Positions 6,621 to 31,062 of a stretch of DNA of 64,000 nucleotides are shown piece by piece. The stretch lies in assembly GCF_003334335.1 (NCBI RefSeq), contig NZ_QOWQ01000003.1; one strand, written 5' to 3'. The stretch's first letter is position 1. The number at the start of each line of letters is the position of its first letter. A model generated the notes under the pieces. The model saw only the letters and a list, made by a program, of their open reading frames with translations, made no database searches and had not been told where the DNA came from. The position numbers and the translations under genes are program-made. The stretch comes from Escherichia coli (GTDB taxonomy: Bacteria > Pseudomonadota > Gammaproteobacteria > Enterobacterales > Enterobacteriaceae).

Positions 6621-8013
6621 GTGGTCCTACATCATCACCGTCAATGTAGATCACGTCGTCTTTTTCCAGTTTGGCTAACCATCGTTTAAGGTGTTTTGTG
6701 TCATACCCCAGCTTTTTCATATCGTCACGTAACAGCGGGATCGTGCACTTGTCGCCGTGCTGTGTGCGTGAACGTATGCACCCCCATAGCGCGGTATGGT
6801 TTTCCGTCTTGTTGCCTGCCTCCTCGATGCGCTCCAGTTCAACGGGAGGGCGCGGCTTATCCACCACCACCAGCGACGTGATTAACTCCCCGTCAGCGTC
6901 GGTAAAAAGCTCCACCACCCGCAAATCATAGGCAGCCTCTTTGAGTTCCTCCGCGTCCTTCATTTTGGTGCATGAGATAACCAGCGCTTCGCTTCCTGCG
7001 TCCTCCCTGCGTATCCGGTATTCAGCATCCAGCGAAGCACGAAATGCACTGGAACCGCGCGCGCCTTTCGTCTCATCCTTGCCGGAATGGTGAACCACCA
7101 GCACCGTGGCCCCTGTGCGCCGTTTAAGCTCGTCACACCCACGGATAAACGCCCCCATATCACGGGAATCATTTTCATCATTGCCACCAAAGCAACGCGC
7201 CAGAGTATCAAGAATAATCATGCGTACAGGTTTACCCGTTTCCCGCTCCACCTGACGGGCAGCGATAACCAGTTCATCAACATCAAGCGGGACAGCCGGA
7301 AAAACTGGACGGTTTACCAGATACAGATTTTTCACCTGCTCACCGTGCACAACCTCCCAGGCTTTTACACGACGCGGAACGCCGATACCGCCTTCACCAA
7401 CCACATAGAGAACAGCGCCATGCGCCACCCTGCGGCCTCCCCACTGGCGGCCCGTGGAAACGTGACACGCCCACGAACCCGCAAGGAATGATTTATAGGA
7501 ACCGCTTGCCCCGTATATGCTGCATAGCGACGATGCCGGAATAATCCCCTTTACCACGTAATCTAATTGCGTGTCGTATCCGGCAGATCCAACGCTCATC
7601 GGTAGCGTGGTTTTTCGCTGGTGGTGTTCTTCCCCTGGCTTTTTCCCCCGCTCCCGTTCCAGATATTCGCGCCAGTTCTCCCGCTTCTGGCTGTGTATCC
7701 CTTCGGGGTAATAATTCGCATCAGTTACGCCCGCCGCCGCCAGCTTGTGCGCAATGGCATTAATATTTGATGGCCTGATGTGGCCTGCCTTGTACAGCCG
7801 GACACAATAGCGCCCCTCGTCGATGATTCTCAGGTCTGCCAGTTCATCCAGTTGATCATCAGCCAGCACAATGGGAGGCACATTATCGCCAGCCAGTCGC
7901 CCGTCCTGTTCCTGCCACTGTTTCGCATGTGCCCACGCATCACTACCCGCAAAAATGATGACTTCGGTCATCTTGTCGTAAGGCTGTTTTTTTAAGTTCG
8001 GTGCGCTTTTCAT
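6616..8013 (-). CDS. Satellite replication protein, RecA/DnaB-like P-loop ATPase with N-terminal extension
   Basis: 465 aa; Walker A GASGSYKS and ILDTLARCFGG...VHHSGK helicase-like motifs; followed by the iteron array. Confidence 0.85.
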   Translation of the reverse strand: MKSAPNLKKQPYDKMTEVIIFAGSDAWAHAKQWQEQDGRLAGDNVPPIVLADDQLDELADLRIIDEGRYCVRLYKAGHIRPSNINAIAHKLAAAGVTDANYYPEGIHSQKRENWREYLERERGKKPGEEHHQRKTTLPMSVGSAGYDTQLDYVVKGIIPASSLCSIYGASGSYKSFLAGSWACHVSTGRQWGGRRVAHGAVLYVVGEGGIGVPRRVKAWEVVHGEQVKNLYLVNRPVFPAVPLDVDELVIAARQVERETGKPVRMIILDTLARCFGGNDENDSRDMGAFIRGCDELKRRTGATVLVVHHSGKDETKGARGSSAFRASLDAEYRIRREDAGSEALVISCTKMKDAEELKEAAYDLRVVELFTDADGELITSLVVVDKPRPPVELERIEEAGNKTENHTALWGCIRSRTQHGDKCTIPLLRDDMKKLGYDTKHLKRWLAKLEKDDVIYIDGDDVGPL

Positions 8014-28062: not shown

Positions 28063-29571
28063 ATGAATAAATCGCTGGTAGCGGTAGGCGTCATTGTTGC
28101 GCTAGGCGTAGTCTGGACAGGCGGCGCATGGTATACAGGCAAGAAGATTGAAACCCATCTCGAAGACATGGTCGCGCAGGCGAACGCGCAACTCAAACTG
28201 ACAGCTCCTGAATCCAACCTGGAAGTGAGTTATCAAAACTATCATCGCGGCGTATTCAGCAGCCAGTTGCAACTGTTGGTGAAACCCATTGCCGGGAAAG
28301 AAAATCCGTGGATTAAAAGCGGTCAGAGCGTCATCTTCAACGAATCGGTTGATCATGGTCCCTTCCCGCTTGCCCAGCTTAAAAAACTGAACCTGATCCC
28401 GTCGATGGCATCAATTCAAACCACGCTGGTTAATAACGAAGTAAGCAAACCACTGTTTGATATGGCAAAAGGTGAAACGCCTTTTGAGATTAACTCGCGC
28501 ATTGGTTACAGCGGTGATTCCAGTTCCGATATTTCGCTCAAGCCACTGAATTACGAGCAAAAGGATGAAAAAGTCGCCTTTAGCGGCGGCGAGTTCCAGT
28601 TAAATGCTGACAGAGACGGCAAAGCCATCTCCCTTTCCGGGGAGGCGCAAAGTGGTCGGATAGACGCAGTTAACGAATACAACCAGAAAGTGCAGTTGAC
28701 CTTTAATAATCTGAAAACCGACGGTTCCAGCACGCTGGCAAGTTTTGGTGAGCGTGTAGGAAATCAAAAACTGTCACTGGAAAAAATGACCATTTCAGTG
28801 GAAGGCAAAGAACTGGCACTGCTGGAAGGCATGGAGATCAGCGGTAAATCGGATCTGGTCAATGACGGTAAAACGATCAATAGCCAACTGGATTACTCGC
28901 TAAACAGCCTGAAGGTACAGAATCAGGATCTGGGCAGCGGCAAGCTGACTTTAAAAGTCGGCCAGATTGATGGTGAAGCCTGGCATCAGTTTAGCCAGCA
29001 ATATAACGCGCAAACTCAGGCGCTGCTGGCACAGCCAGAAATTGCCAACAACCCCGAACTTTATCAGGAGAAAGTGACGGAAGCCTTCTTTAGCGCCCTG
29101 CCGCTGATGCTGAAAGGCGATCCGGTGATTACTATCGCGCCGCTAAGCTGGAAAAACAGTCAGGGTGAAAGTGCCCTGAATCTGTCGCTGTTCCTGAAAG
29201 ATCCGGCAACGACTAAAGAAGCGCCGCAAACGCTGGCGCAGGAAGTAGATCGTTCGGTTAAATCTCTGGATGCGAAACTGACCATTCCGGTGGATATGGC
29301 AACTGAGTTTATGACTCAGGTAGCGAAGCTGGAAGGTTATCAGGAAGATCAAGCGAAAAAACTGGCGAAACAGCAAGTTGAAGGTGCATCAGCAATGGGG
29401 CAGATGTTCCGTCTGACCACCTTGCAGGACAATACCATCACCACCAGCCTGCAATATGCTAACGGTCAGATAACGTTAAATGGGCAGAAAATGTCGTTAG
29501 AAGATTTTGTTGGCATGTTTGCGATGCCAGCTCTTAACGTTCCGGCTGTACCGGCAATTCCGCAGCAGTAA
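28063..29571 (+). CDS. ydgA: DUF945 family protein YdgA
   Basis: 502 aa with signal/anchor, matches E. coli YdgA. Confidence 0.9.
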   Translation: MNKSLVAVGVIVALGVVWTGGAWYTGKKIETHLEDMVAQANAQLKLTAPESNLEVSYQNYHRGVFSSQLQLLVKPIAGKENPWIKSGQSVIFNESVDHGPFPLAQLKKLNLIPSMASIQTTLVNNEVSKPLFDMAKGETPFEINSRIGYSGDSSSDISLKPLNYEQKDEKVAFSGGEFQLNADRDGKAISLSGEAQSGRIDAVNEYNQKVQLTFNNLKTDGSSTLASFGERVGNQKLSLEKMTISVEGKELALLEGMEISGKSDLVNDGKTINSQLDYSLNSLKVQNQDLGSGKLTLKVGQIDGEAWHQFSQQYNAQTQALLAQPEIANNPELYQEKVTEAFFSALPLMLKGDPVITIAPLSWKNSQGESALNLSLFLKDPATTKEAPQTLAQEVDRSVKSLDAKLTIPVDMATEFMTQVAKLEGYQEDQAKKLAKQQVEGASAMGQMFRLTTLQDNTITTSLQYANGQITLNGQKMSLEDFVGMFAMPALNVPAVPAIPQQ

Positions 29572-29580
29572 TTCACGGCC

Positions 29581-29612
29581 AAAACGCCGGAGAATTTTCA
29601 CTCCGGCGTTTT
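29581..29612 (+). terminator. Rho-independent terminator after ydgA
   Basis: AACGCCGGAGaattttcaCTCCGGCGTT followed by TT. Confidence 0.6.
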
Positions 29613-29635
29613 CATCTGAAAACAAACCAGAGATT

Positions 29636-29733
29636 GCCTGATGCGCTACGCTTATCAGGCCTACCTTTTCCTGCAACACTTTGAATTTATGAGTTTTTGT
29701 AGGCTGGATAAGGCGTTTACGCCGCATCCGGCA
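29636..29733. repeat. Two REP (repetitive extragenic palindromic) elements
   Basis: GCCTGATGCGCTACGCTTATCAGGCCTAC and AGGCTGGATAAGGCGTTTACGCCGCATCCGGCA, typical REP consensus. Confidence 0.7.
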
Positions 29734-29762
29734 TAAAAAACGCGCACTTTGTCAACAATCTG

Positions 29763-29798
29763 AAACGCCGGAGATTTTTCTCTCCGGCGTTATTTTTT
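29763..29798. terminator. Hairpin near uidC 3' end
   Basis: AACGCCGGAGatttttctCTCCGGCGTT followed by ATTTTTT; near-copy of the hairpin at 29581-29612. Confidence 0.45.
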
Positions 29799-31062
29799 AC
29801 TTCAGCATAAAGTCATACTGAATACTCATTTTCACATCCCAGTAATTCAGGCGATCGCCCAGCGTACTGCCATCGCGCTTTTCCCGCCCTTTATCGGCAG
29901 CAAGAAAGAAATTCATCCCTTGTAACGGCCCTTCGCTGACCCGATAGTTCATACCACCTAAGATACCCGTGCCTTCAATCCGCACATCTCGTTTACTGGA
30001 TTCATAGCCGCGAGTCACAATCGGTGCAAATGTCAGCGTAAATTGCGGCGTTAAACGATAGTTGACGCCCAATTGCCAGGACTGCATTCCTTCACGGTTA
30101 CGATCAAGACTTAATGAAAAGGGATAGCCAATGTCGGTATCCACCACGGCACCATTCATTGCATGGCGCAAATAACCACCACTGCCAAATACACTTCCCC
30201 ACGGCGCATTCCAGGTCAATTGTCCACTAACCAACGCCGTTTCATTGGGCTGGCTGGTATTACGACTTAAACCTTCGAGCTGCGCGTAAAAGCCGAGCAA
30301 CTCCCCTTTCAACGTATAATTCGGGTCGAGCGGTATGCTTTTCTCGAGAATACTTTGTATCTGATTGGAAACATCTTTCTGTACCGATGCCCCCAGAGAA
30401 TAGCGACTGGTATCATCATGCCAACTGGCGGCTAAAAAAGAACGTGCGCGATGTTTATCGTATTTTCCCGTCTGGCTGTTATACACCCCTTCATCACGAA
30501 TACCGGTTGTTGAATCAGTCCATAAAAATACTCGTGAACGCCACATTCCCCACAGATCAATATTTGGTGTTAAAGCCCAATAACCTAATGCTCCTTCAGA
30601 AACTGTCGGTAATGTACGTTGCGAACTGCCAGCCATTAACGGAATACGATAAGGTAAGCTACCATAACTATAATCCGTCCCGAAGCGACCTAATTTAAGC
30701 AGGCTATTTTCACTGGGTTTTATTTTTACTGCCCCCAGGGCAAAGCCAAAACTTTTATCACCATCAAGATACCACCGGGTACTCATATCAGCACGAGCAC
30801 CTAATTTATAAACATAATACGCCCCGCCTTCAACGCCAATAATATTGGAATAATAACCACTATTGAAATCGAGCAATCCTCCCTGTACCCATGCGTAAAT
30901 ATCTCTTCCCGCGCCAGCACTGGGCTTATCCGCCCTGCGCAATTCGTTTTTCAGTCTGATGCGTAGTCCCGCTTCATCGTCAGCCAGTTGCGCCGCATAA
31001 GCAGAGGTAAGGCCAGAGGCAGCCGTCAGGCAAATAACGGCCATGGCCACTATTTTTCTCAT
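29797..31062 (-). CDS. uidC: Outer membrane porin for glucuronides
   Basis: 421 aa, signal peptide, matches E. coli UidC. Confidence 0.9.
   Translation of the reverse strand: MRKIVAMAVICLTAASGLTSAYAAQLADDEAGLRIRLKNELRRADKPSAGAGRDIYAWVQGGLLDFNSGYYSNIIGVEGGAYYVYKLGARADMSTRWYLDGDKSFGFALGAVKIKPSENSLLKLGRFGTDYSYGSLPYRIPLMAGSSQRTLPTVSEGALGYWALTPNIDLWGMWRSRVFLWTDSTTGIRDEGVYNSQTGKYDKHRARSFLAASWHDDTSRYSLGASVQKDVSNQIQSILEKSIPLDPNYTLKGELLGFYAQLEGLSRNTSQPNETALVSGQLTWNAPWGSVFGSGGYLRHAMNGAVVDTDIGYPFSLSLDRNREGMQSWQLGVNYRLTPQFTLTFAPIVTRGYESSKRDVRIEGTGILGGMNYRVSEGPLQGMNFFLAADKGREKRDGSTLGDRLNYWDVKMSIQYDFMLK

Follow-up and report, generated by a model that had tools for sequence, protein, structure and literature searches.

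Introduction

BIME-1 elements of Escherichia coli consist of a z1 and a y REP separated by an L linker, often with an IHF site, and occur as single copies (PMC3333891). The z1 REP is 29 nt and the y REP 35 nt long (PMC8266576), and the REP types are also set out in PMC3333891. The presence or absence of BIME-1 among isolates is already documented in PMC3333891 and in PMC1187871, the latter citing Bachellier 1997. How REPs and BIMEs spread was described in 2021 as still to be elucidated (PMC8266576), and a review treats REPs as lacking the signatures of MITEs (PMC3184786). The enzyme linked to REPs, TnpA_REP (RAYT), is an HUH Y1 protein of the IS200/IS605-like kind. It cuts single-stranded DNA at C/T near REPs (the slash marks the cut) and joins only 3' ends that terminate in C. 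Bacterial MITEs such as ERIC and Correia are short, non-coding elements that end in imperfect inverted repeats, lie between direct repeats and are polymorphic for empty and filled sites; their target duplications are short and fixed in length (e.g. TA). Cas1-Cas2 (with IHF in E. coli) and casposons integrate at both borders of a repeat, and gap filling then duplicates the ~28-nt repeat.

Here, we describe the spacer between the convergent E. coli genes ydgA and uidC, in which an inverted REP pair lies between two near-identical hairpins. The object is a BIME-1 element, and its presence/absence polymorphism is of the known sort. The duplication of a whole hairpin and the targeting of terminators are apparently undescribed; neither was found in the BIME/REPIN literature searched, the original BIME papers of 1991-1999 lying outside that search.

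Results

Two copies of one hairpin bracket a BIME-1-type element between ydgA and uidC

The window, that is, the whole 64-kb stretch of E. coli DNA analysed, contains a ydgA-uidC spacer of 225 bp that is identical to the MG1655 spacer (1691361-1691585). The gene names ydgA and uidC given in the initial annotation agree with the RefSeq annotation of identical DNA. No repeat feature is annotated for this spacer in the MG1655 RefSeq record. The features of the region are as follows.

28063-29571, plus strand: ydgA, encoding a DUF945 protein, the upstream convergent gene (ORF; RefSeq annotation of identical DNA)
29472-29571, plus strand: divergent 3' patch of ydgA, its last ~90-100 bp, a haplotype in complete linkage with the long allele
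29582-29610, no strand: probable left copy of the duplicated target, within hairpin 1 (repeat and fold analysis)
29611-29634, plus strand: left terminal motif TTCATCTGAAAACAAACCAGAGAT, a diverged version of the family consensus TGAGAMTGATGACAAACGCAAAAYT
29635-29664, plus strand: inverted REP of z1 type, 30 nt, ending in CTAC, TGCCTGATGCGCTACGCTTATCAGGCCTAC (length and tag, inverted repeat)
29665-29698, plus strand: L-type linker, 34 nt, lying between the z1 and y REPs (sequence)
29699-29733, plus strand: REP of y type, 35 nt, starting with GTAG, GTAGGCTGGATAAGGCGTTTACGCCGCATCCGGCA (length and tag, inverted repeat)
29734-29763, plus strand: right terminal motif TAAAAAACGCGCACTTTGTCAACAATCTGA, conserved in the element family
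29763-29791, no strand: probable right copy of the duplicated target, containing hairpin 2 and identical to the single hairpin of O157
29792-29799, plus strand: T-rich tail ATTTTTTA after hairpin 2, overlapping the uidC stop codon
29797-31062, minus strand: uidC, encoding a glucuronide porin, the downstream convergent gene (ORF; RefSeq annotation of identical DNA)

Hairpin 1 (29581-29612) has a 12-bp stem formed by the arms AAAACGCCGGAG/CTCCGGCGTTTT (29581-29592 and 29601-29612) and the loop AATTTTCA. Hairpin 2 (29764-29791) has an 11-bp stem formed by AACGCCGGAGA/TCTCCGGCGTT (29764-29774 and 29781-29791) and the loop TTTTTC. Together they make a 29-nt direct repeat (29582-29610 versus 29763-29791) that is identical at 27 of 29 positions (93%), with both mismatches in the loop. 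RNA folding of either hairpin on either strand gave -20.5 to -21.3 kcal/mol, with z between -4.4 and -6.6. The direct repeat and these strong folds bear out the initial description of two near-identical hairpins bracketing a REP pair, and the pair itself was recovered as the inverted REP and the REP listed above. The pattern AACGCCGGAG-N4-10-CTCCGGCGTT occurred at exactly two sites in the 64-kb window and at none in 100 shuffles.

Three simpler origins of the repeat were ruled out. The hairpin does not belong to a dispersed family, as it occurs at no more than two places per genome and at this locus only. Hairpin 2 is not an inverted (fold-back) copy, as the loops match directly (6/8) and not as reverse complements; the hairpin copies at other loci are also identical in direct orientation. 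A simple tandem duplication of a 181-bp unit was excluded because the repeat covers 29 nt only.

The segment between the repeats (29611-29763, 152-153 bp) comprises five parts: left motif, z1 REP, linker, y REP and right motif, with the z1 and y types assigned by length and tag rather than from a curated profile. Since the left motif of the window copy is strongly diverged, the left boundary was set by register with the family (±1-2 nt); this left flank is unique to the locus and was found in 1752 genomes, at one place in each. Megablast placed the REP pair at ~38 places per E. coli genome, and copies of the right motif at a median of 5 and up to 14 places. When aligned by eye, the family consensus ends, GAGACTGATGACAAAC and the reverse complement TCAGATTGTTGACAAAG, agree at 12 of 16 positions, with the left end in the window diverged. 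An IHF-consensus-like site was identified by sequence match on the minus strand at 29674-29686 (ATTCAAAGTGTTG, one mismatch to WATCAANNNNTTR). The promoter scan of the region found none. A permissive Rfam search returned nothing at the gathering threshold, just sub-threshold REP-related and chance matches; the best of these was naRNA4 at 29702-29743 (37 bits versus a threshold of 59.5), a family built from REP325, and this match reflects the y REP rather than a separate RNA gene.

The segment has one y and one z1 unit in inverted orientation, tagged GTAG/CTAC, and is a single, non-tandem, extragenic unit of the ~140-bp kind found at 3' ends, placed here between convergent stop codons. It shares with BIME-1/RIB/RIP elements their composition, their size of ~140-150 bp, their single-copy state and their extragenic position at the 3' ends of transcription units, and is a BIME-1/RIB-type element. 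With a median identity of 79% to other family members, among the lowest in the family, the window copy is old.

Long and short alleles of the spacer in E. coli

Comparison with other E. coli genomes, named as a check in the initial annotation, found the whole structure (the long allele) in 1751 of the 5426 complete genomes; the rest had one hairpin and no REP. In the short allele, carried for example by O157:H7 and CFT073, 44 bp separate the two stop codons. The long allele has a further 181 bp, made up of an extra hairpin copy and 152-153 bp. The hairpin is present in 5424 genomes, at 7173 places in total and at most two per genome, with one copy in each short-allele genome and two in ~1749 long-allele genomes. 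Because the hairpin is single in two thirds of the genomes, and because its copies abut the ends of the element, we regard the two hairpins as two copies of one rather than as independent terminators.

Several long-allele haplotypes exist (L062, which is E. coli GF4-3 from guinea fowl, L004 and L061). In GF4-3, hairpin 2 has the same loop as E. albertii, AATTTTCT; this sequence stands between those of the two K-12 loops and is 1 nt different from the loop of hairpin 1. The annotation of E. coli O157:H7 strain Z1723 lists uidC as a pseudogene with a frameshift (L001:1535-2799).

The same architecture occurs at other loci with different hairpins

Elements of this kind, located through the right motif, also lie between paired copies of a local hairpin, distinct from that of ydgA-uidC, at yqjG-yqjF (AAACGAGGAG..CTCCTCGTTT) and at yqiK (prohibitin-family)-tkt (AAGGGCCGC..GCGGCCCTT). 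In E. coli, the filled sites are found in 78 and 1214 genomes, respectively, and empty alleles with exactly one hairpin are found in K-12 AB1157 (yqjG-yqjF) and GPEC1209 (yqiK-tkt). The three polymorphic loci, ydgA-uidC included, share one layout: flank, hairpin, then (T)GAGAxTGATG ... CAATCTGA, then hairpin and flank. Their targets each consist of an A-tract, a G+C-rich hairpin and a T-tract, which is the layout of a bidirectional intrinsic terminator. Both ends of the element contain C/TGA, and many left junctions read C/TGAGA.

A scan for the right motif in one genome per species returned 51 loci. Approximately 40 were in Escherichia (E. coli lineages, E. albertii, E. whittamii and two more species) and in Pseudocitrobacter, and the remainder were chance matches within genes of unrelated bacteria. 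Elements with both ends recognisable measured 151-154 bp across loci. Direct repeats immediately adjoining the two ends of the element, with an offset of 0 to -1 nt, were found at 13 distinct loci, one of them in the window; their local alignment scores were 15-25, whereas mismatched pairs of flanks scored 5.7 on average (sd 2.0). In all 13 cases the repeated segment is a complete stem-loop of 19-29 nt with 0-2 unpaired bases at its ends. The other 12 loci are all in Escherichia, and at each the duplicated hairpin is local and differs from the ydgA hairpin. Substitutions between hairpin copies fall in loops in 8 of 11 cases, and two more, found at the E. whittamii obgE-dacB locus, compensate each other within the stem; in another pair of copies, the loops differ by an indel of one base. 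Together, these results demonstrate that insertion of a defined element is accompanied by duplication of a whole, locus-specific palindrome of variable length.

No flanking repeat was detected at ~8 of the ~22 distinct loci with complete elements. These loci may be old or the product of a different event; one is shared by five species and is therefore old. The barA-gudD locus (L025) was considered as a further empty/filled pair and rejected, because the element is present there throughout E. coli.

Some details of individual loci are recorded here. At obgE/cgtA-dacB, E. whittamii has both hairpin copies, which differ by a compensatory change from A-T to C-G (L039), and in E. coli and E. albertii the left copy has been lost (L008, L013, L054). 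The yqjG-yqjF loop is 4 nt (CTTC) at the K-12 empty site and 5 nt (CGTTT, TGTTC) in the filled-site copies (L063, L006). At all three polymorphic loci the hairpin copies differ in their loops only.

Arrays of the element in Escherichia sp. MOD1-EC7003

BIME-1 is described as single-copy in E. coli K-12. In contrast, MOD1-EC7003 has at least 39 complete element copies in the loci examined, with a median between-locus identity of 93%, and many of these are in arrays, in which elements of 152-153 bp (E) alternate with short hairpins (X). One array has the form X(EX)5. At L051 and L060, a dimer E-Xc-E is flanked by the duplicated local hairpin, and the internal Xc is the terminator of another locus. 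Such a pattern would arise if a multimer moved as one unit and duplicated its target anew.

The arrays at L053, L056, L060, L051, L050, L044 and L048 have 4-8 units with hairpin spacers of 7-25 nt, and hairpins native to one MOD1-EC7003 locus serve as internal spacers at others. The same genome has six tandem copies, with a period of 160 bp, of a different mosaic (L046:11551-12372) made up of another palindromic unit, a short linker, a y REP, the same right motif and a 40-nt spacer.

The 3' end of ydgA, the outgroups and the uid operon

The last ~90-100 bp of ydgA in the window are 83-87% identical to short-allele genomes, compared to 97-99% for the preceding 1190 bp, and the boundary is sharp. 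Almost all the differences are synonymous. The ~15 substitutions cause just 2 amino-acid changes, which rules out a mutagenic origin of the patch. The K-12-like patch, at ≥99% identity, was found in exactly 1751 genomes. Over the last 80 bp, this patch matches E. albertii at 69 positions, compared to 64 for the short-allele patch. The same stretch is 5-8% diverged even among short alleles.

E. fergusonii has the hairpin once, as the terminator of ydgA, and has no uid operon. E. albertii also has no uid genes; directly after its orthologous hairpin, 12 of 15 positions match the left end of the element, with an inverted partner 75 nt away, and this segment may be a decayed element. Since uidRABC is absent from both species, the operon was inserted beside the ydgA terminator in the E. 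coli lineage. In E. albertii ydgA adjoins hdhA, and in E. fergusonii it adjoins a malY-like gene and add (L070:5507-5703, L068:4004-4268). The protein P0037 (86% to YdgA) was uninformative as an outgroup, because the last 480 bp of its locus resemble E. coli. The ydgA gene of L069 (GCA_022716275.1) is ~99% E. coli-like over the last 480 bp and ~89% over the 1100 bp before the last 100 bp, and appears to be mosaic.

Proposed origin of the structure and alternatives

We consider the region to be probably a filled insertion site, where a BIME-1 element of ~152 bp has landed on a shared terminator and the whole hairpin is the target-site duplication. The target before insertion would have been a single bidirectional intrinsic terminator shared by the convergent ydgA and uidC, and the element (z1 REP, L linker, y REP and imperfectly inverted terminal motifs) would have inserted at its hairpin. 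Integration would join the ends of the element at the two feet of the hairpin, the target being recognised by its fold, as an extruded cruciform or as single-stranded DNA folded on itself, rather than by a fixed stagger. Gap repair would then copy the palindrome, which would explain why the duplication varies in length, from 19 to 29 nt. More generally, the element seems to act as a miniature transposon, with intrinsic-terminator hairpins as its targets and duplication of the palindrome in full. The insertion at ydgA-uidC would be old, because the element is highly diverged and E. albertii possibly holds a decayed one. TnpA_REP would be the obvious candidate enzyme, but its reported chemistry makes no duplications: it is the sole enzyme linked to REPs, a single-strand HUH protein whose relatives leave no target duplication (PMC3333891, PMC2817692). 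This, and the loci with complete elements and no flanking repeat, weigh against the insertion reading.

The initial annotation described the hairpins and REPs correctly but judged them to be probably ordinary intergenic architecture. Convergent genes do often have a terminator each, and REPs are common in such spacers; on that account, the similarity of the two hairpins would be coincidental or convergent. We give this practically no credence. The identity of 27/29 extends to the orientation of the loop, the hairpin is found nowhere else, two thirds of E. coli genomes have one hairpin and no REPs, and the copies abut the ends of the element exactly as at other loci. Copying without a transposase is also improbable in our view. 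Palindromes stall replication and promote template switching. Template switching or repair at a stalled hairpin might have picked up a BIME-1 from another site and copied the hairpin a second time on switching back; the length of the duplication follows the palindrome. However, switching driven by microhomology should leave ragged ends, and the ends of the element vary by no more than ±1 nt (151-154 bp) across over 20 loci and among the 39 copies of one genome. We also think it unlikely that the spacer is a junction of horizontal transfer, with hairpin 1 native to ydgA and hairpin 2 brought in with the uid operon by illegitimate recombination beside a resident BIME-1. The donor would then already have had uidC beside the terminator of ydgA, and the copies would be orthologues rather than a target duplication. 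In favour of this reading, acquisition of the operon follows from the absence of uidRABC in E. albertii and E. fergusonii, and there is no difference from the O157 short allele across hairpin 2 and the 240 bp after it. The loop of hairpin 1, AATTT(T)CA, is like that of E. fergusonii, and divergence changes sharply ~90 bp inside ydgA. Yet hairpin 2 starts exactly at the conserved right end ...CAATCTGA, as at 12 loci whose hairpins are unrelated to that of ydgA, and a chance junction would not reproduce this register. Later recombination on the uidC side equally explains the identity of hairpin 2 to short alleles, and in GF4-3 the loops of the two hairpins are just 1 nt apart.

The remaining alternative concerns the direction of the present polymorphism, and on it the duplication would still stem from an older insertion. 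It is possible, if somewhat less than probable, that the long allele is ancestral and that the short allele arose by precise deletion between the 29-nt copies or was imported with the uid operon. The short allele of today may thus go back to an original empty site, to an exact deletion between the two repeats or to import as a block along with uid; the latter two come into consideration because the patch of the long allele looks native and E. albertii may hold a decayed element. The short-allele patch is indeed the outlier in the comparison with E. albertii (64/80 versus 69/80), the E. albertii segment retains 12/15 of the left end and the inverted partner, the window element is among the most diverged of its family (median 79%) and there are several long-allele haplotypes. 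On the other side, no genome was found with a K-12-like patch and a single hairpin. The numbers of long alleles (1751), patches at ≥99% (1751) and left flanks (1752) match so closely that recurrent deletion is not seen. Diverse lineages carry the short allele, with 5-8% diversity in the patch, and the hairpin is single in E. fergusonii. Past the hairpin, E. albertii aligns poorly, and hairpin targeting would make an independent insertion at the same site plausible.

Predicted consequences for termination

The terminator consensus scan found a sole site, hairpin 2 with its tail on the plus strand. Hairpin 1 is followed by UUUU on the plus and UUUU on the minus strand, and hairpin 2 by UUU on the minus strand. 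After an insertion of the kind proposed, the left copy would keep the A-tract and the right copy the T-tract, so that each gene would keep a hairpin next to its stop codon, with the best combination of hairpin and U-tract at the distal copy. Transcripts of ydgA would then mostly end after hairpin 2 and those of uidC after hairpin 1, which would place the REP pair within both convergent 3' UTRs and make these overlap. The predicted effect is that alleles differ in the 3'-end structure of ydgA and uidC across E. coli lineages.

Discussion

The element shares features with several mobile systems. As in REPINs, an inverted REP doublet is the unit that is gained and lost, and the C/TGA at the ends of the element resembles in sequence the sites cleaved by TnpA_REP (C/T essential; TGCC/TGAT). 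IS200/IS605-type transposition differs, being single-stranded and free of target duplication (PMC3333891); here, a duplication of 19-29 nt is the rule. Like bacterial MITEs, the element is short and non-coding, lies between direct repeats and has empty as well as filled sites, and its family consensus ends (12/16) may represent imperfect terminal inverted repeats. A target-site duplication was found at 13 repeat-flanked loci, with a single copy at the empty sites of three empty/filled pairs. The length of this duplication is atypical for a MITE, being variable (19-29 nt) and equal to the whole palindrome; this would imply recognition of the target by its structure. By analogy, CRISPR integration by Cas1-Cas2 may be compared, in that a partly palindromic target is duplicated whole and an IHF site is predicted in the window element; it differs in that the insert here is 152 bp with defined ends and goes to many different terminators, and there is no evidence for Cas1. 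IS1272 also targets stem-loops in intergenic DNA, but is reported to insert in inverted repeats without target duplication (PMC5678879). IS1397 and ISKpn1, which insert in REPs, share the preference for stem-loop targets, and whole-hairpin duplication is not reported for them. Class C group II introns likewise prefer stem-loop targets in intergenic DNA, and we know of no report of whole-hairpin duplication for them.

More tentatively, BIME-1 may be mobile, now or recently, through a form of integration that has gone unrecognised, in which the element is joined at the feet of a terminator hairpin and the palindrome is duplicated; we would put this somewhat below an even chance. If true, the reaction would be guided by structure, unlike the duplication-free type of TnpA_REP, and formally nearer to Cas1-Cas2/casposase-type or cruciform-directed integration. 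It would provide the first sequence footprint of REP/BIME dissemination, and would explain why the elements lie at the 3' ends of transcription units with termination preserved. Should the old BIME literature already report the duplication, the value of the locus drops to that of a well-documented example with population counts. The duplication, together with thousands of genomes with empty sites, provides a concrete target in bidirectional intrinsic terminators, a defined element of 152-153 bp whose ends are fixed, and a testable reaction geometry. REPs and BIMEs are the most abundant non-coding repeats of E. coli, and the duplication of a whole hairpin is a rare clue to how such abundant repeats spread.
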